This document shows, one piece after another, positions 24,583 through 36,226 of a stretch of 64,000 nucleotides of DNA (position 1 is the stretch's first letter; the number at the start of each line of letters is the position of its first letter). The position numbers and the translations under genes were made by a program. This stretch comes from Candidatus Aenigmatarchaeota archaeon (GTDB taxonomy: Archaea > Aenigmatarchaeota > Aenigmatarchaeia > CG10238-14 > SpSt-28), in NCBI GenBank assembly GCA_038733315.1, contig JAVYPJ010000001.1, positions 146,770 through 210,769 on the forward strand, written 5' to 3'. The notes below the pieces were generated by a model. It saw only the letters and a program-made list of their open reading frames with translations. It was not told where the DNA came from and did not search any database.

Positions 24583-25323
24583 ATGAAAATGAACATAGCT
24601 AAAAATATGATAGTTTTAATTGTTATAATAACTCTTCTTTCGATAGCAAAATTTTTGCTTAATTTATATTCCCTAGAAGTTTTTGAGTTCCAATCTGCCA
24701 TAATGGCAATAATTTCTGGATCCATTTTTCTAATAGGTATAATATATGCTGCTGTTTTCTCTGATTATAAAGAGAGTGAAAGGATATTAGTAGATTTGTC
24801 CATATCTATTAAAAACATCATAAGAGAAGGGAACTTTATCAAAAGATATGATGAAAAGCTATCTAAAAATATTAAGAAAATAATGAAAACTCTCTATACG
24901 CATATAATGGATTACTTAAACGGACAAAAAAACTATAACAAAATTATTGAAGATATTAACCAAATTAATGAAAAAATTAATGAGTCCGATATAGATAAAA
25001 TACCAAACGCTTATATAACTAGATTAAAGAATGAATTATCAAACATTGAAAAATATATAGATAGAATTAAAATGATAGCAGAAACTGAATTTGTTCCAAT
25101 AGTTTTATATCTTTCTTTATCTTTGATTACAATATCTACAATAACTATTGTTCTATCTGATTTAAAAAATATTTATGTTGAGATTTTTTTCGTTATAGCA
25201 TATTCATCGATTTGTTATGGTATGGTTTTTGTGACTAGAGATATGGAAAATCCATTTAAAGGAGTTGTAAAAATTTCCCTAGAACATATAAAGGATTTGA
25301 AAAATTTTATTGACTCTTCTTAA
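24583..25323 (+). CDS. multi-TM membrane protein (DUF4239/bestrophin-like layout)
   Basis: 2 TM + soluble helical region + 2 TM ending DMENPF. Confidence 0.6.
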   Translation: MKMNIAKNMIVLIVIITLLSIAKFLLNLYSLEVFEFQSAIMAIISGSIFLIGIIYAAVFSDYKESERILVDLSISIKNIIREGNFIKRYDEKLSKNIKKIMKTLYTHIMDYLNGQKNYNKIIEDINQINEKINESDIDKIPNAYITRLKNELSNIEKYIDRIKMIAETEFVPIVLYLSLSLITISTITIVLSDLKNIYVEIFFVIAYSSICYGMVFVTRDMENPFKGVVKISLEHIKDLKNFIDSS

Positions 25324-26338
25324 ACATTTCCGTTTTTATCGTTTTTCTTATTTCCTCTATAAAATCACAAACCTCCTTTACATGACAGTATGGACAAACA
25401 ACCTTTCTAAAATTTGGAAGATTACTCATTTGTGGAATTCTACCATAAGCTAAAACTTTCTTAACGCTTCTTAACAAATTTTGGACCATTCTTTTATCTT
25501 CTTCGCCTATTCTAATTCTATACATTTTTCTATTATTCAAGCTTAATAAAATAACTTCATTTATTTCTCTTCTAAAGAAACTCTCCACTACAAAAACCTC
25601 TCCAGCAAGTTGTATTTTCAATCCTTTTTTTATCTTTTTTACATTTGTTTTAATTTCGATGGGTAATATTTTTCCATCCTTAGTTATTACTATCATATCT
25701 GGAGTGCCCACCACACCATGTTTTATTGAAATTAAAAATGGTTCTGAAAATACATATCTCAAATTCAATTTTTTAAGTAAGTTATTTAAAGAAAATAAAA
25801 CCTTGGTTATTTCATCTTTGTTCATCTTTGTTTTACCTCTATATTCTTTCAGAACATCTTCACTTACAAGAGATATTAAAGTTTCTAAATTATCTATATA
25901 CCTATTATAATTTTTTATAAAATTACATATAGATTTATGTAGAACTTCCCCTTCAAAACTTTTTTCTGATTTCTTTTGTTTAGAATGTGTAACCTTTTCT
26001 AGGAAAAATCTTCTTTGACATTGAAAAAATTTTGAAATTTCTAGAGGAGTTAAAAATACTTTTCTTGAAAGATTTTCAACTCTTTTTTTTAAATATTCTA
26101 GCAATTCGTTTATATATTCCTTAGAGAATTTTTCTGATTTATGAATTTCGTTGTTTATTGAAGATATTTTTTCGTCCTTAGACAATTTTTGTAGTAAAAG
26201 AAAGAGTATATCTGTTATATAAATTTCGTTATTCAAAAAATTTAAAATTATATCGTCTATTGTTTTTTTACCGACAAAATCGATTTGTTCTATAGATTTT
26301 AACAAAACCTCGTCACTTATATCTATTTTTAATTTCAT
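25307..26338 (-). CDS. solo Cas4/Dna2-like PD-(D/E)xK nuclease with Fe-S cysteines
   Basis: FFQCQRR, GEVLH, GTPD...PIEIKT, QLAGE, CPYCHVKEVC; no CRISPR or other cas genes in the window. Confidence 0.82.
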   Translation of the reverse strand: MKLKIDISDEVLLKSIEQIDFVGKKTIDDIILNFLNNEIYITDILFLLLQKLSKDEKISSINNEIHKSEKFSKEYINELLEYLKKRVENLSRKVFLTPLEISKFFQCQRRFFLEKVTHSKQKKSEKSFEGEVLHKSICNFIKNYNRYIDNLETLISLVSEDVLKEYRGKTKMNKDEITKVLFSLNNLLKKLNLRYVFSEPFLISIKHGVVGTPDMIVITKDGKILPIEIKTNVKKIKKGLKIQLAGEVFVVESFFRREINEVILLSLNNRKMYRIRIGEEDKRMVQNLLRSVKKVLAYGRIPQMSNLPNFRKVVCPYCHVKEVCDFIEEIRKTIKTEMFKKSQ

Positions 26339-30954: not shown

Positions 30955-31559
30955 TTATATATAGGGGAGCGGAAGCAGTTATTAGGAAAATTAATGAAAA
31001 TGAAATAATAAAAGAGAGAATAGAAAAAAAGTATAGAATAAAAGAACTTGATATTAAAATAAGAAAAGAAAGAAATAAAAGAGAAGCTAAAATATTAATA
31101 GAATGTAAAAGAATTGGTATAAATGTTCCTAGAGTTTTAGAAATAAATGACTTTTCTATGAAAATGGAATACATCAATGGAAAAAGATTAAAAGATGTTA
31201 TAAACAACAAAAATTATAAAGAATTTGCTACTGAAATAGGGAAAATTGTTTCAATACTACATTCGAATAATATAGTTCATAATGATTTAACTCTATCAAA
31301 TCTCCTACTCTATGATAATAAAATTTATCTAATCGATTTTGGTTTGTCATATAACACAAATAAGATAGAAAAAAAAGCTGAAGATATTTTAACTCTTTAT
31401 TATTCAGCAAAATTCATAATAGGAGAAAAATTTGAAGAATTTTTTAAAATGTTTGTTGATGTCTATACTAAAAACTATTCTGAAGGTGGTAAAGTTATAG
31501 AAAGGATGAAAAAAATACTATCAAGAGGTAGGTATTCTTTGAAAAACAATGGCAACTAA
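30951..31559 (+). CDS. bud32: KEOPS kinase Bud32
   Basis: [32 protein letters not shown]. Confidence 0.92.
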
Positions 31560-31821
31560 AAAAGATTTATTAAATTTTTTATTCAAAGAAAAACCTTTAA
31601 AAGTTCTTTTAGTACTATCAGATGGTCTTCCTAAAAATATAACACAAATCTACAAAAAAGTTAGAACAACATACTCACATACACTAAACATATTAAGTGT
31701 TATGTATGATTTGAACATAATAGAGTTTGAAAAAAGAGGTAGAGATAAAGTTGTGAGATTAACAAAAAAAGGTGAAAAGATTGTTGAAGCATTAAAATCC
31801 ATATTATCAGATTTTCTATGA
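31549..31821 (+). CDS. small winged-helix DNA-binding protein
   Basis: KPLKVLL...NITQI...TYSHT...KRGRDKVVRLTKKG. Confidence 0.85.
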   Translation: MATKKDLLNFLFKEKPLKVLLVLSDGLPKNITQIYKKVRTTYSHTLNILSVMYDLNIIEFEKRGRDKVVRLTKKGEKIVEALKSILSDFL

Positions 31822-31915
31822 ATTTTTAGATATTTTTTATGAATATTCTTACATTTTTTATGAATATTCGCAAAATTTTTATGAATTTTCAGAATTTTTT
31901 TATGAAAAATCAGAG
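31811..31915 (+). repeat. five tandem 21-bp iteron-like direct repeats
   Basis: Core TTTTTATGAA with ATGAA at 31818, 31839, 31860, 31881, 31902; consensus ATTTTTTATGAATWTTC. Confidence 0.9.
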
Positions 31916-32203
31916 AATTTTTGAAAAGTTTCGGAAGTTATTTTGTATAAATGTTTTATAAAATCGTAACTTTCTTATTTAAAACATTGAGATAAGAAAG
32001 TTAGAGTTTGTGTTTTATTGTTATGTGTCTATTTCATAAACATATAGTAACAACTCTTTTATAACATTGTTATAATAAAAATTAATAAAAATGTTTTTAT
32101 TATTAATGTGTTTATATAAAGAGTGTAAAAAATAATAAATATTACTCTTCATATAATTAAACGAACTTAAATAAGAATCTTCATAAAAAATATAATTTAT
32201 GAA
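31811..32203. other. candidate replication origin or regulatory region
   Basis: Longest non-coding gap seen in the window; iterons, inverted copies, palindromes and an AT-rich stretch, surrounded by replication genes. Confidence 0.5.
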
Positions 32204-32471
32204 AAGAGGAAGACCATCTAAAAGGTTTGAAATATATGAATTGATTAATGAGTATTTTAAAGAGAATCCTTATCCATCGAATGTTAATAAAATAGCTGAA
32301 TTTATATTTCAGAAAAGTAATAAAAAAATCAGTTGGAATACATTAAAAAAATATTTGGAAGAATTAGTAAAGATAGATAGAATTAAAAGAATAATACCAC
32401 CTCATTCGAAAGATAGTTCCAAAACCGGTATAACCCTATATTATTTAGAAGTAAAAAAAGAAAATGAATAG
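32199..32471 (+). CDS. small winged-helix protein with N-terminal KRGRP motif
   Basis: MKRGRPS, NVNKIAEFI...ISWNTLKKYLEEL, wing ending GITLYY. Confidence 0.8.
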   Translation: MKRGRPSKRFEIYELINEYFKENPYPSNVNKIAEFIFQKSNKKISWNTLKKYLEELVKIDRIKRIIPPHSKDSSKTGITLYYLEVKKENE

Positions 32472-33441
32472 ATCCTTAGAATTGATTAAAAAGGGATATT
32501 TAATTCAAGATAAAAATCTTTCAGATTTGTTATCAAAAATTAGTGACGAAGATTTTAAAAAAATATTAGATGTTTTACCAAAAACAACAGAACCAAAAGT
32601 TTTGAAAAAAGAAGATATTTTAAGATTGATGGGTAAGAATTATAACATAAAAATACTAACTCCAAAAGGTAAAGAAAAAATAACAATTACCGATGTTATT
32701 AACATAATGAAATCGAGATTCGACTTTTTTTTACCTATTTTAAAGAAAAAATTATCTTTCTTTAATTTATTATCAATTAATAAGATTTCAAAAAAATATA
32801 GAGTTTTTTCGATAATAGGAATTGTTTATAAAATTTACGATAATAAAATAACGTTAGAAGATATGACAGGAAAAGTAGAAGTTGTTGTTGAGGATAAAAA
32901 TCTACTAAAATACATCGAAGAAGACTGTGTAATTGGAGCTAAATGTTATTGGAATAATAATGTAATAATAGCTAATGAAATTATTTTCCCAGAATATGAG
33001 AATAACCAAGAAAAGGAGATAAACTTAGAGAAAATAAATATATTTTTCGAAAGTAGTAATTTTAAACTCGATGAAATTTTTGACATATCTATAGTTTTTT
33101 GTAATGAAGAGAATAAAATTTTAAATAATGTAGTCTATTTAAATAATAGAACTCCAATACATAGAATTCTTGTTAATGAATGTCTAATTCTTTTTATAAA
33201 CGAAAATTTTATAAAATTTGATTTTGAAAAGTTTTATAAACTCAGATTAATAAAGTCTAGTATTAATCAAACAATAAAATTTGGAGCGGATTTATTTCTA
33301 ATCCAAGAAAAACCTAACATTATATTTTTATATAACTCTAACTTAAATAAGATAGAAGAAAGAAATAAAATCGTTTTAATTAATATAAAGAACAACCAAT
33401 CAAAAATTTGTATTGATTTAAAAAATAGAGAGTTTTGTTGA
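32464..33441 (+). CDS. inactivated PolD small subunit (DP1) / polymerase B-subunit homolog
   Basis: SRFDFFLPILK, OB fold IIGIV...LEDMTG...DCVIG...IIFPE, C-terminal DLFLIQEKPNII; phosphoesterase SDxH/GD/GNH/HxH motifs absent. Confidence 0.75.
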   Translation: MNRSLELIKKGYLIQDKNLSDLLSKISDEDFKKILDVLPKTTEPKVLKKEDILRLMGKNYNIKILTPKGKEKITITDVINIMKSRFDFFLPILKKKLSFFNLLSINKISKKYRVFSIIGIVYKIYDNKITLEDMTGKVEVVVEDKNLLKYIEEDCVIGAKCYWNNNVIIANEIIFPEYENNQEKEINLEKINIFFESSNFKLDEIFDISIVFCNEENKILNNVVYLNNRTPIHRILVNECLILFINENFIKFDFEKFYKLRLIKSSINQTIKFGADLFLIQEKPNIIFLYNSNLNKIEERNKIVLINIKNNQSKICIDLKNREFC

Positions 33442-33508: not shown

Positions 33509-36226
33509 ATGAGCACTGAAAGATTTTTTTTAATAGACGTTGATTATGATGTTATCGACGATAAACCATTAATAAGGATTTATGGAAAAACAAAAGATAA
33601 TAAATCAATAACAGTTTTTTATAGAGATTTTTTTCCATATTTTTATGTTAAAACGAAAGATTTAGAAAAAACAATTGATTTTATAGATAAAAATTTTAAA
33701 AATTTAATTGTTAAAGTGGAAATAGTTAATAAATATTTACCTATAGGTTTTAAAAACAAAAAAGACGAACTTTTAAAAATATATTTAAAGCATCCGGCTA
33801 AGGTACCTATCGTTAGAGATCAGCTAATGAGCTTAGAATTTATAGAGGGAATTTTTGAAGCTGATATACTTTTTAAGTATAGGTTTATGGCAGATTTTGG
33901 TCTTTATGGTTGTAAGTGGTATGAAGCTGAAGGAGTTTATGTTAATAATACATCTACTGTTTTCACAGATTTAAAGTTCGAGGCGAAAATTTTTAAAGAA
34001 GTAGAAGATATAACTAATCCAAAATTTAAGATATTATCAATAGATATTGAAGTGGCTAATGACATCGGCATGCCAAACCCGAAAAACCATCCAATATCTA
34101 TAATTTCTTTAAGTTTTTTCCCAGAGTTTAAAGATAAGAAAAGTCTTGTTTTACTTTCCAAAAAAATTATAAATAAAGAAAATTTAGATATTTTGTGTTT
34201 CGAAAATGAAGAAGAAATGCTAAAAAAATTTGTGGATATTGTTAAGGAATATAATCCAGATTTTATTATAGGTTATAACATCAACAATTTTGATATACCT
34301 TATATAATCGAAAGATTAAAAATAAACAACATCAAACCATATCTTGGTAGAGTTAAAAAGAGTTGTAAAAGTATAAAACTTAATGAGGGAAAATATAAAA
34401 ACACAATTACTGGAAGAGTAATAGTAGATTTTTATGAGATATTTAAGGAATTTTCAAAAAAAGGAATGTTTAAAACAAAAAGATTGGGTTTAGGTGATGT
34501 CGCAAGTGCTTTAATTGGAAAAACGAAAGAGGATGTTGATCATAGTGAAATTAAAAAGCTTTGGGATGGGGATATTGATGATATTTTAAGATTAGTTAAG
34601 TATGCGAAAAAAGATGCTGAGCTTGTTTTAGAAATTATGTTAAGTAGAGATTTCCTCTCTCAATACATAGAAATTTCTAGATTGAGTGGTTTATTACTTC
34701 AAGATTCCTTAGCTGGCTCAGAATCTTCAAGAATAGAACAGTTTCTATTAATAGAATTTAATAAAAACGATTTTGTAATTCCGAATAAACCAACTAAAAA
34801 AGAGCTCAAAGAGAGGGAAAAAGAAAGGGTTAAGGGTGCTATTGTTTTAGAGCCAAAAACTGGCTTGCATGAATATGTTATTTATTTGGATTTTAAATCG
34901 CTATACCCAAGTTTAATAATTCAGTATAATATATGTCCAACAACATACGTTAGGAAAAAAGAGGAATTAGATGAAGAAATAGAATTAATTCAATCGCCAA
35001 TAAACACCTTTTTTGTTTCAAAAAATGTAAGGGAAGGAATTTTTCCAAGAGTTTTAAAAAGATTAATAGATGAAAGAGATATGATTAAAAAATTAATGAA
35101 AAACGAAAAGGATGAGGTTAGAAAAAAACTTTTAGATGCAAAACAATTAGCTCTAAAAAGTCTAGCAAATTCTTTTTATGGATATACAGGATATCTTAGG
35201 GCAAGATTTTTTATTGCTGATATTGCTAATACAATAACTGCTTATGGTAGATATTGGATAACTAATGTTAAAAAACTTATAGAAAGCGTTGGTTATGAGG
35301 TTGTTTATGGCGATACAGATTCAGTTATGATTAAGGTTAATGTGAATTCGATGGAAGAGGCATTTAAAAAAGGATTGGAAATAGAAAAATTTATCAATTC
35401 TAACACTCCTGAAAATATAAAAATGAAGTTAGAAGGTATAATGAAAAAGATATTATTAATAACAAAAAAGAAATATTTCGGATATTTGTTTGAGAGTAAT
35501 AATGACAGCGGAAAAATCCTTATGAAAGGTGTAGAAACAGTAAGAAGGGATTGGTGTGATTTGGTTTCTGAGACTTTGAGTAAAGTAATTGAAATACTTT
35601 TAATTACAGGTGATGAAAGGAAAGCTTTTGATTATGTTAGGGAAATATTTAGAAAGTTAAAAAATAATGAAATAGATCCACAAAAACTAGCTATAGTAAA
35701 ATCAATCTCAAGACCTATTGAAAAATATAAAGGGCAACAACCACACATAGAATTAATAAAGAAAATGAGAAAAAGAAATGAGCCTAATATACCTGGTGTT
35801 GGTGATAGGGTAAGTTATGTAATAGTTTCCGGGCCACAAAAAATTGTTGAAAGAGCAGAGAGTGTTGATTATGTTAAAAAACATAAAATACCAATAGATG
35901 CAGAATACTATATACATCATCAATTATTACCACCCTTAGAAAGAATTTTTGAAGTGATAGGTATATCTTCTTCACAGTTTATTACTGGAAGTAAACAGAT
36001 ATCTATTCTATCCATTATACAGAATGGAAATGGTAATGGAAAGAAAGATTATAGTGAAAAGATTCCAAATAATGAAATAAGAATCGAAGAGCTTGAAGGT
36101 TTTATATGTAACAGTTGTTCAACTATATACAGAAGAGTACCATTAAATGGTTTTTGTGAAATATGTAATGGTGAAATAGTATTTTATTCACAAACATTAA
36201 AAACAAAAATATTATCTATAACATAG
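33509..36226 (+). CDS. polB: family B DNA polymerase with C-terminal DP2-like zinc finger
   Basis: ExoI DIE, ExoII YNINNFD, DFKSLYPS, KSLANSFYG, YGDTDS; tail CNSCSTIYRRVPLNGFCEICNG. Confidence 0.96.
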   Translation: MSTERFFLIDVDYDVIDDKPLIRIYGKTKDNKSITVFYRDFFPYFYVKTKDLEKTIDFIDKNFKNLIVKVEIVNKYLPIGFKNKKDELLKIYLKHPAKVPIVRDQLMSLEFIEGIFEADILFKYRFMADFGLYGCKWYEAEGVYVNNTSTVFTDLKFEAKIFKEVEDITNPKFKILSIDIEVANDIGMPNPKNHPISIISLSFFPEFKDKKSLVLLSKKIINKENLDILCFENEEEMLKKFVDIVKEYNPDFIIGYNINNFDIPYIIERLKINNIKPYLGRVKKSCKSIKLNEGKYKNTITGRVIVDFYEIFKEFSKKGMFKTKRLGLGDVASALIGKTKEDVDHSEIKKLWDGDIDDILRLVKYAKKDAELVLEIMLSRDFLSQYIEISRLSGLLLQDSLAGSESSRIEQFLLIEFNKNDFVIPNKPTKKELKEREKERVKGAIVLEPKTGLHEYVIYLDFKSLYPSLIIQYNICPTTYVRKKEELDEEIELIQSPINTFFVSKNVREGIFPRVLKRLIDERDMIKKLMKNEKDEVRKKLLDAKQLALKSLANSFYGYTGYLRARFFIADIANTITAYGRYWITNVKKLIESVGYEVVYGDTDSVMIKVNVNSMEEAFKKGLEIEKFINSNTPENIKMKLEGIMKKILLITKKKYFGYLFESNNDSGKILMKGVETVRRDWCDLVSETLSKVIEILLITGDERKAFDYVREIFRKLKNNEIDPQKLAIVKSISRPIEKYKGQQPHIELIKKMRKRNEPNIPGVGDRVSYVIVSGPQKIVERAESVDYVKKHKIPIDAEYYIHHQLLPPLERIFEVIGISSSQFITGSKQISILSIIQNGNGNGKKDYSEKIPNNEIRIEELEGFICNSCSTIYRRVPLNGFCEICNGEIVFYSQTLKTKILSIT

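Follow-up and report, generated by a model that had tools for sequence, protein, structure and literature searches.

We analysed a window of 64,000 nucleotides (positions 146770-210769 of contig C1) from the genome of an archaeon, referred to here as G000, whose assembly comprises 733 kb in 7 contigs with 27% G+C and is 94% complete. The contig is 397 kb long, and in a protein search close homologs of the proteins encoded in the window carry the label Candidatus Aenigmatarchaeota. Our subject is a gene-free gap of 377 bp with 16.7% G+C (window positions 31822-32198) between two open reading frames (ORFs) of 90 amino acids (aa). A sequence-only reading of the window had proposed that this gap is an iteron-type chromosomal replication origin, recognised by one of the two small winged helix-turn-helix (wHTH) proteins encoded on either side of it. 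Comparisons were made with 61 relatives in families f1-f7; the contigs of G000, G004 and G012 belong to f1 and that of G039 to another family. Coordinates without a contig name are those of the window.

The upstream gene, wHTH1 (31549..31821, + strand), encodes a 90-aa protein that is weakly Sso10a/ArsR/HTH_45-like. An array of five strong 21-bp units and a degenerate sixth (31812..31935, + strand), located by repeat finding and a position-weight scan, is followed by a spacer of 236 bp (31936..32171) whose low G+C makes it a candidate unwinding region. Within the spacer lie an inverted repeat with 17-nt arms and a 3-nt loop, predicted from arm complementarity and folding to form a hairpin (31967..32003), and a palindrome (32059..32075). 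The spacer is closed by a single inverted unit (32172..32190, - strand), which at 20.2 bits is the second best motif site in the genome. Beyond it lie wHTH2 (32199..32471, + strand), which encodes a 90-aa candidate iteron-binding protein, a gene for a DP1-like B-subunit in which only the OB-fold region was detected (32464..33441, + strand), and a PolB gene identified by family profiles (33509..36226, + strand), whose product has a C-terminal Cys-rich tail resembling the DP2 C-terminus.

The repeat array and the AT-rich gap

The five direct repeats at exactly 21-bp spacing described in the sequence-only reading are borne out, with start-to-start distances of 21, 21, 21 and 21 bp within 31801-31926. 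The position-weight scan places the unit starts at 31812, 31833, 31854, 31875 and 31896, with a weak sixth at 31917, and Tandem Repeats Finder reports a period of 21 with 5.3 copies and a score of 117 at C1:178580-178691 (window 31811-31922). The first unit begins inside wHTH1 (31549-31821) and overlaps its stop codon. The repeat core is TTTTTATGAAnnTTC, and the unit consensus TTTTTTATGAA-N-TTTC-ARA amounts to a T-tract followed by the dyad TGAAnnTTCA. With up to one mismatch allowed, TTTTTATGAANNTTC occurs 11 times in the window against 2.1 expected, a number that none of 100 shuffles reaches, and five of the 11 matches fall within the gap. Six of the eight best motif sites of the genome are also in the gap and the other two are inside ORFs, so there is no regulon of 21-bp units; the motif matrix was trained on sites of the G000 array itself and of its genus relatives. 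The array is the best-scoring short-period tandem array (at least four copies) in the genome outside a clustered regularly interspaced short palindromic repeat (CRISPR) locus.

The array on the + strand, the 236-bp spacer and the one unit on the - strand together place oppositely oriented sites on the two sides of an AT-rich region, and phased direct repeats within the 17-22 bp range beside such a region are a hallmark of iteron origins. The inverted unit occupies the segment 8-27 nt upstream of the wHTH2 start codon, ending 8 nt before it. Two reversed copies of the core had been proposed: the one at 32172-32193 stands, being 95% complementary to 31830-31851 over 22 nt, but that at 32031-32040 is weak (72%, less than 10 bits). 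What had been read as a 12-bp inverted repeat is present but has 17-nt arms (31967-31983/31987-32003) that are 88% complementary; as single-stranded DNA it folds at -9.3 kcal/mol (z = -4.2). It was seen in G000 only, and none was noticed in those spacers of relatives that were inspected. The G+C of the gap is the lowest among 67 ORF-free gaps of at least 250 bp in the genome. The corresponding gap ranks first of 132 in G039, first of 38 in the piece available for G053 and second of 44 in G012. At E up to 1, Rfam matched nothing within 31400-32400.

The 17-bp palindrome at 32059-32075 (TTATAACATTGTTATAA, core TATAAC-N3-GTTATA) is exact, as had been noted. Its core occurs three times in the G000 genome against about 0.4 expected for the two large contigs together, and 1-2 times per large contig against about 0.2. 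The other two G000 copies (C1:285271 and C2:138551) precede isc/suf genes. Further copies were located at G039:739411, G004 C1:532616 and G012 C1:302131. Outside the gap the palindrome lies 3-54 nt before the starts of IscS/IscU, SufC/SufS-like or small XRE-type HTH genes in G000, G004, G012 and G039, and with up to one mismatch it is found in 10 of 19 wHTH2 loci. Since its other copies front isc/suf genes, the palindrome is probably not the origin element for which it had been taken; judged by these positions, it is most likely the operator of an iron-sulphur (Fe-S) regulon. That regulon would extend to the replicase operon, which encodes the polymerase with the Cys-rich tail.

Both 90-aa ORFs give weak winged-helix matches, in agreement with the earlier placement of the gap between two winged-helix genes, and family profiles confirm that histone, RPA, Bud32, DP1-like, Rad51/RadA and PolB genes surround it. 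wHTH1 matches Pfam HTH_45 at 2.2e-5 and NCBIfam Sso10a_fam at 8e-5. It is present in 57 of the 61 relatives and adjoins the array in this genus only; outside the genus, where both genes are on one contig, it lies 30-43 kb from wHTH2, and it is probably a bystander. wHTH2 is assigned to no family in Pfam or NCBIfam (its sole Pfam match is TBPIP at 0.0022), and no solved structure was matched below E = 0.25 in a sequence search. Among 18 aligned orthologs three motifs are invariant, M-K/R-R-G-R-P at the N-terminus, SWNT..KY..EL in a helix and PHSK in a wing; we take the N-terminal RGRP to be an AT-hook core. The AlphaFold2 model (mean predicted local distance difference test score 84) is a single generic winged helix, with PadR/MarR-like proteins as the top fold matches. 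Among 5.8 billion proteins the family counts 337 members, all of them unnamed or 'hypothetical' and labelled Aenigmatarchaeota. The start of the DP1-like gene overlaps the wHTH2 stop codon, and the gene holds the same position in relatives; its product matches the NCBIfam PolD small subunit at 1.3e-8 over residues 74-191 and a Pfam OB-fold. No PolD large subunit was found in the G000 genome. The pairing of PolB with an inactive DP1 in Aenigmatarchaeota has already been described in published work (PMC7544198, PMC12680538).

Conservation and the counterpart in a sister family

The module is conserved across an order of Aenigmatarchaeota and always heads the wHTH2/DP1-like/PolB operon. All six other genomes of the genus have the order wHTH1, array, wHTH2, and in each array four to seven units in 21-bp phase can be recognised. 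The units are degenerate in G006, and the spacers of the genus keep the palindrome or a near copy of it together with the proximal inverted unit. In one genus genome the array is inverted and next to wHTH2, with one direct unit across the spacer from it, so the conserved feature is opposed sites around an AT-rich spacer. The repeat motif and its 21-bp phase also recur in other families, where the array stays with wHTH2, DP1-like and PolB and not with wHTH1. Of the gene order from one wHTH gene to PolB that had been offered as a test, the part from the repeats through wHTH2 and DP1-like to PolB thus holds throughout the order, but the adjacency of wHTH1 upstream is confined to the genus. The inverted copy lies at most 60 nt before the wHTH2 ATG in 14 of 19 loci, overlapping the position expected for the regulator's promoter (itself a predicted placement), as it does in autoregulated operators.

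A paralog of wHTH2 was noticed in G051 (L026:1006-1477). It is 77 aa long (hhalign 93%), has the helix changed to SWHT and lies directly upstream of the regular wHTH2 gene. Upstream of it are repeats of its own, three copies of AAATGTTTGCA at 20-bp spacing with inverted copies, in the same kind of layout; this fits the idea that proteins of the wHTH2 family may read repeats beside their own genes. In the genus of G000 the left flank is rearranged: a metallophosphoesterase gene and a 125-aa neighbour now lie at C2:33994-37542, and RPA, RadA, Bud32 and wHTH1 now abut the array.

The earlier statement that no Orc1/Cdc6 and no origin recognition box (ORB) accompany the gap is correct for the window, which has no Cdc6_C domain and no Orc1 gene, but as regards Orc1/Cdc6 it does not extend to the genome. 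A search of G000 for orc1/cdc6 returned one divergent gene at C2:91456-92481, which matches TIGR02928 at 2.6e-51, just under the cut-off. Its product has no recognisable Cdc6_C domain, for which the G000 genome gave no match at all, and the gene is packed between others with no gene-free DNA beside it. The divergent type is present in 57 of the 61 relatives and never adjoins wHTH2. No GTGAAG array was found at the second TIGR02928 match in G000. ORB-like pairs within 600 bp were found neither in the 7 contigs of G000, the gap included, nor in five f1/f2 contigs searched; the same expression matches boxes in five f5 loci.

Those five loci of family f5 share one gene order: metallophosphoesterase, gap, Orc1/Cdc6 (402-404 aa), DP1-like (with overlapping stop and start) and PolB. 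The Orc1 next to the gap matches Cdc6_lid at 4e-29 and Cdc6_C at 3e-26. Family f5 usually has a second Orc1/Cdc6 gene, and in the five genomes examined it is this one that sits exactly at the position of wHTH2; no orc1/cdc6 gene adjoins the gap in G000. By eye, an AT-rich spacer in each f5 gap is flanked by inverted ORB-like boxes with G-strings (TYCxAxxxGAAA-N3-5-GGGG), and mini-ORB-like boxes stand at the promoter. A regular expression recovered both arms in one locus and the right-hand arm in all five, the rest being read by eye. The palindrome in the middle of the f5 spacer, ATATAAYAYTGTTATAT, is the same as that of the f1/f2 gaps, and the palindrome is mainly useful as a marker that the two kinds of gap are one region. 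The metallophosphoesterase is 53% identical between f5 and f2 and adjoins the array in G039, G053, G035 and G012; in f2 and in genus g2 of f1, the phosphoesterase and the DP1-like/PolB genes flank the repeat array and wHTH2. Because the flanking genes are the same, the repeat gap of f1/f2 and the ORB gap of f5 are positional counterparts.

The Orc1 type found at this position, Orc1-A (defined by at least 63% identity to the f5 query), and wHTH2 are mutually exclusive. Orc1-A is present in 16 of 18 f5 genomes and in the single f7 genome, and in none of the 42 genomes of f1, f2, f3, f4 and f6. wHTH2 is found in 38 of those 42 and in none of f7; in f5 there were two weak matches (E = 0.0046), one of them interrupted by many stop codons. 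Over all 61 relatives this sets 17 genomes with Orc1-A against 40 with wHTH2. A PolB tree rooted on a paralog, with three open forks, did not place f5 outside the wHTH2 lineages. We had also considered wHTH2 as a Pol32/p66N-like polymerase subunit and dropped the idea, as f5 has Orc1 in that position and no wHTH2. Elsewhere, a solitary high-scoring unit at G039:756946, considered as a second origin, sits between convergent genes and was rejected, and the gap at C2:143410-143894 in G000, likewise a candidate for a second origin, looks ordinary.

Strand composition around the locus

Raw cumulative GC skew mostly follows gene orientation. We therefore replaced it with the GC skew at third codon positions (GC3 skew) of genes on the + strand compared with genes on the - strand, which removes the coding-strand effect, and fitted a two-segment change point. 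To the left of the array in G000 there is no GC3 asymmetry (0.218 versus 0.190, p = 0.53) and to the right it is strong (0.311 versus -0.047, p = 8e-23); the change point is placed at 173.1-184.9 kb and the array lies at 178.6 kb. In G004, which belongs to the same genus, the best change point of a 549-kb contig is 2 kb from the array, with a wide interval. G012, from another genus, shows a V-shaped minimum with the change point at 213.4-218.9 kb and the locus at 213.9-214.2 kb. The 786-kb contig of G039, from another family, gives a two-armed curve with the change point at 299.8-311.3 kb and the locus at 301.2-301.5 kb. The skew check that had been suggested for the origin thus supports it, in that the change-point interval includes the locus in four of the four contigs with usable skew, and the surviving Orc1 gene is at no switch in G012 and G039. 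The three narrow intervals make up 3.2%, 1.6% and 1.6% of the spans scanned, fractions whose product overstates significance because the contigs are related.

Several other features of the skew curves were noted. About half of the G000 genome (C1:1-178000 and C2:1-148000) has no third-position asymmetry (r = 0.17 and -0.11) and the other half has a strong one. There is a second skew switch no more than about 4-12 kb away from the MCM gene in G000 (C2:159805-162439), G039 (C2:707333-713187) and G004 (C1:517459-519501). Its distance to the origin-like locus is about 295 kb in G004 and some 410 kb in G039, which is roughly opposite; in G000 the two are on different contigs. TBP adjoins MCM in G000 and G039, and the region of the second switch in G039 has MCM, TBP and an OB-fold gene and no AT-rich gap bearing repeats. 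A single ORF of about 8,700 codons lies outside the window at C1:699-26732 in G000, and similar giant genes in relatives distort the skew curves.

An origin or an operator

We consider it probable that the gap is the chromosomal origin and that iterons and an AT-hook winged-helix protein, which would also autoregulate the replicase operon, have taken the place of ORBs and Orc1 there. Synteny, mutual exclusion, layout, AT-richness and skew taken together make this the most economical reading. The chromosomal origin first proposed from the window has accordingly gained an ORB/Orc1 positional counterpart, a skew switch and the lowest-GC gap of the genome; against it, skew polarity is inverted in one family, and initiation at the gap is a prediction. 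Of the two flanking wHTH proteins put forward as its recogniser, wHTH2 travels with the repeats across the order and is predicted to bind them, but wHTH1 is adjacent in the genus only. The winged helix of wHTH2 would sit on the TGAAnnTTCA dyad of each unit, while its RGRP hook would enter the minor groove at the T-tract before the dyad. The AT-rich spacer would then lie between five or six in-phase copies, all facing the same side of the helix, and one opposed copy, as the f5 spacer lies between inverted ORBs, and through the promoter-proximal inverted copy wHTH2 would autoregulate the wHTH2/DP1-like/PolB operon. The MCM helicase might be brought in by wHTH2 itself, or together with the remaining divergent Orc1/Cdc6 encoded about half a genome away.

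A number of observations weigh against the origin. DNA binding, unwinding, helicase loading and autoregulation by the wHTH2 system are what we infer from the sequence. The gap has neither the TTCC...GAA core of an ORB nor a G-string, and its repeats are unlike ORBs. wHTH2 has no detectable homology to plasmid Rep proteins (by Pfam and fold search) or to the winged helix of Orc1-A (hhalign 0.3%), and because of the latter the change looks like displacement rather than truncation. In plain sliding windows the spacer is only the fifth least stable 150-bp segment genome-wide and so is not unique. A plain autoregulated operator would likewise have an inverted copy strictly next to the promoter and would head an operon, and the palindrome, as the probable operator of an Fe-S regulon, speaks for a common promoter region no less than for a common origin. 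The skew adds further difficulties. The flat left arm in G000 is not predicted by a simple bidirectional origin, the G053 piece and the G035 contig have no significant asymmetry (their skew is too weak), and the polarity differs between families, with the cumulative minimum at the locus in the three f1 contigs and the maximum there in G039. Under the usual rule of a leading strand rich in G and T, the G039 locus reads as a terminus. G and T enrichment go together in all genomes, and either the mutational polarity is inverted in the lineage of G039 or the locus is a terminus there; a published analysis describes inverted skew polarity in haloarchaea relative to other archaea (PMC1868953). Finally, the small-subunit ribosomal RNA gene points away from the locus in three of the four genomes that have both on one contig and the gene for ribosomal protein L3 in one of four such genomes, which leaves no net signal for an origin in the orientation of these genes.

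The main rival is an array of operators and nothing more. wHTH2 would be a transcription factor that binds cooperatively to the inverted copy and the phased repeats, possibly with the spacer looped out, to control the wHTH2/DP1-like/PolB operon, and replication would start elsewhere, at the locus by other means, or without a fixed origin. The distance of 8-60 nt between the end of the inverted copy and the start codon in the 14 loci mentioned above, the generic PadR/MarR-like winged helix of wHTH2 and the operator-like Fe-S palindrome all suit such a regulator, and with an operator-like palindrome in its spacer the gap is certainly a promoter or control region. Replication without a fixed origin has a precedent in Thermococcus kodakarensis, for which replication with neither Cdc6 nor its origin has been reported (PMC5663688). 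An operator array does not explain the coincidence with skew switches in four contigs, the ORB/Orc1 positional counterpart and ORB-like repeat layout, or the mutual exclusion of the origin-adjacent Orc1 and wHTH2. Simple autoregulation would also hardly call for five to seven phased sites at a distance of 250-400 bp upstream, and scans of gaps, tandem arrays, ORB pairs and the C2 gap found no other origin-like locus. On these grounds we regard the operator-only account as unlikely, though it deserves to be taken seriously.

Alternatively, the gap could be an origin whose repeats are read by the surviving divergent Orc1/Cdc6 encoded on C2, with wHTH2 in an accessory or regulatory role like that of nucleoid proteins at other archaeal origins. 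An Orc1/Cdc6-type AAA+ protein is, after all, retained by 57 of the 61 relatives, and in Sulfolobus origin function is reported to require a small protein that is not itself an initiator (UBP, with the ucm motif; PMC12141716). We think this quite improbable. The divergent Orc1 has no recognisable Cdc6_C domain, and the repeats co-occur with wHTH2, whereas the divergent Orc1 is found in families with and without repeats. In f5 it coexists with canonical ORBs and Orc1-A and so needs no iterons there.

A replication terminus or fork barrier, at which oriented sites for a small winged-helix protein arrest forks, is very unlikely. In Bacillus subtilis, RTP arrests forks at Ter sites next to its own gene, and the opposed sites beside a small winged-helix protein gene recall that arrangement; a skew switch, moreover, may mark a terminus as well as an origin, and the G039 locus is at a cumulative maximum. 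The three f1 contigs, however, put the locus at a minimum, a terminus needs no extreme AT-rich spacer, and the orthologous site of f5 carries ORBs and Orc1. The other switch of G039 also looks broader in a 20-kb cumulative table, like a fork-fusion zone, although the fitted intervals are of similar width. A partition site resembling a centromere, to which a small winged-helix adaptor binds as in parC/ParR or with AspA of pNOB8, would account for phased direct repeats upstream of a gene for a small DNA-binding protein and for the PadR-like fold matches but is scarcely credible, as no ParA/SegA-type ATPase was seen among the genes read beside the module in the loci examined and the downstream genes are DP1-like and PolB.

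Read as an origin, the gap can be compared with several known systems. Like a canonical archaeal oriC, it is an AT-rich region bracketed by opposed initiator-type sites, upstream of the head gene of a replicase operon and at a skew switch; a layout of oriC, cdc6, dp1 and dp2 has been described in Thermococcales (PMC1904270). The f5 locus has exactly the canonical layout, with true ORBs and Orc1. The G000 gap differs in that it adjoins a gene for a 90-aa winged-helix protein rather than an AAA+ Orc1/Cdc6 and in that its sites are 21-bp phased direct repeats. We judge the gap likely to be a positional descendant or counterpart of the classical archaeal oriC. The oriC3 of Sulfolobus is reported to depend on an adjacent winged-helix protein, WhiP, instead of Orc1/Cdc6, and WhiP to bind AT-rich repeats at or near its own gene (PMC3607249). 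The likeness is that of a chromosomal archaeal origin with an adjacent winged-helix protein in place of Orc1/Cdc6, given the predicted binding of wHTH2. WhiP is a tandem winged-helix protein related to Cdt1 that serves one of three origins in Crenarchaeota, whereas wHTH2 has a single winged helix, an AT-hook-like N-terminus and no Cdt1-type match, and lies at the apparent main or only origin.

Iteron origins are known from the plasmids pPS10, F, R6K, P1 and RK2. The gap resembles them in its direct repeats of about 20 bp two helical turns apart, its AT-rich neighbour and an inverted copy in the promoter of the adjacent gene. Their Rep proteins, however, have two winged-helix domains (Rep_3), and wHTH2 has one and no Rep_3 match in Pfam; the G000 locus, moreover, is chromosomal, among core replication genes and in synteny conserved across families, and is not on a mobile replicon. 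The ORC of fission yeast finds AT-rich origins through AT-hooks on Orc4, and an RGRP-type hook might similarly read T-tracts in an extremely AT-rich origin. The yeast hooks sit on an AAA+ subunit of ORC; the putative hook here belongs to a free 90-aa protein. We expect with fair confidence that the gap works like an iteron origin and like oriC3 with WhiP; neither in sequence nor in domain structure is it a member of either family.

Few features common to archaea and eukaryotes are as conserved as origin recognition by Orc1/Cdc6, and to our knowledge Sulfolobus oriC3 with WhiP is the one cellular exception that is well documented. A full-text literature search, which did not extend to supplements, found no published description of an origin in Aenigmatarchaeota. 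More tentatively, and with considerable doubt, we suggest that the whole lineage swapped the Orc1/Cdc6-ORB module, universal in archaea and eukaryotes, for a plasmid-style one at its chromosomal origin, in which a free 90-residue AT-hook/winged-helix protein would read the phased iterons and recruit MCM without an origin-bound AAA+ initiator. Sister families with the same flanking genes in two states, ORBs with Orc1 or iterons with a tiny winged-helix protein, amount to a natural experiment on initiator replacement. As a minimal candidate for an origin-binding protein, wHTH2 lends itself to expression and footprinting with no need to grow the organism. If the origin is real, predictors that seek ORBs beside cdc6 would misplace or miss it in these genomes.

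Other features of the contig were recorded in passing. A gene for a Cas4/PD-(D/E)XK-type nuclease with a weak Dna2-like match lies at 25307-26338 on the - strand, a few kb from the cluster of histone, RPA and RadA genes. Outside the window, a CRISPR-like array lies at C1:254569-257106 of G000; its period is 66-67 bp and its repeat about 30 nt long.

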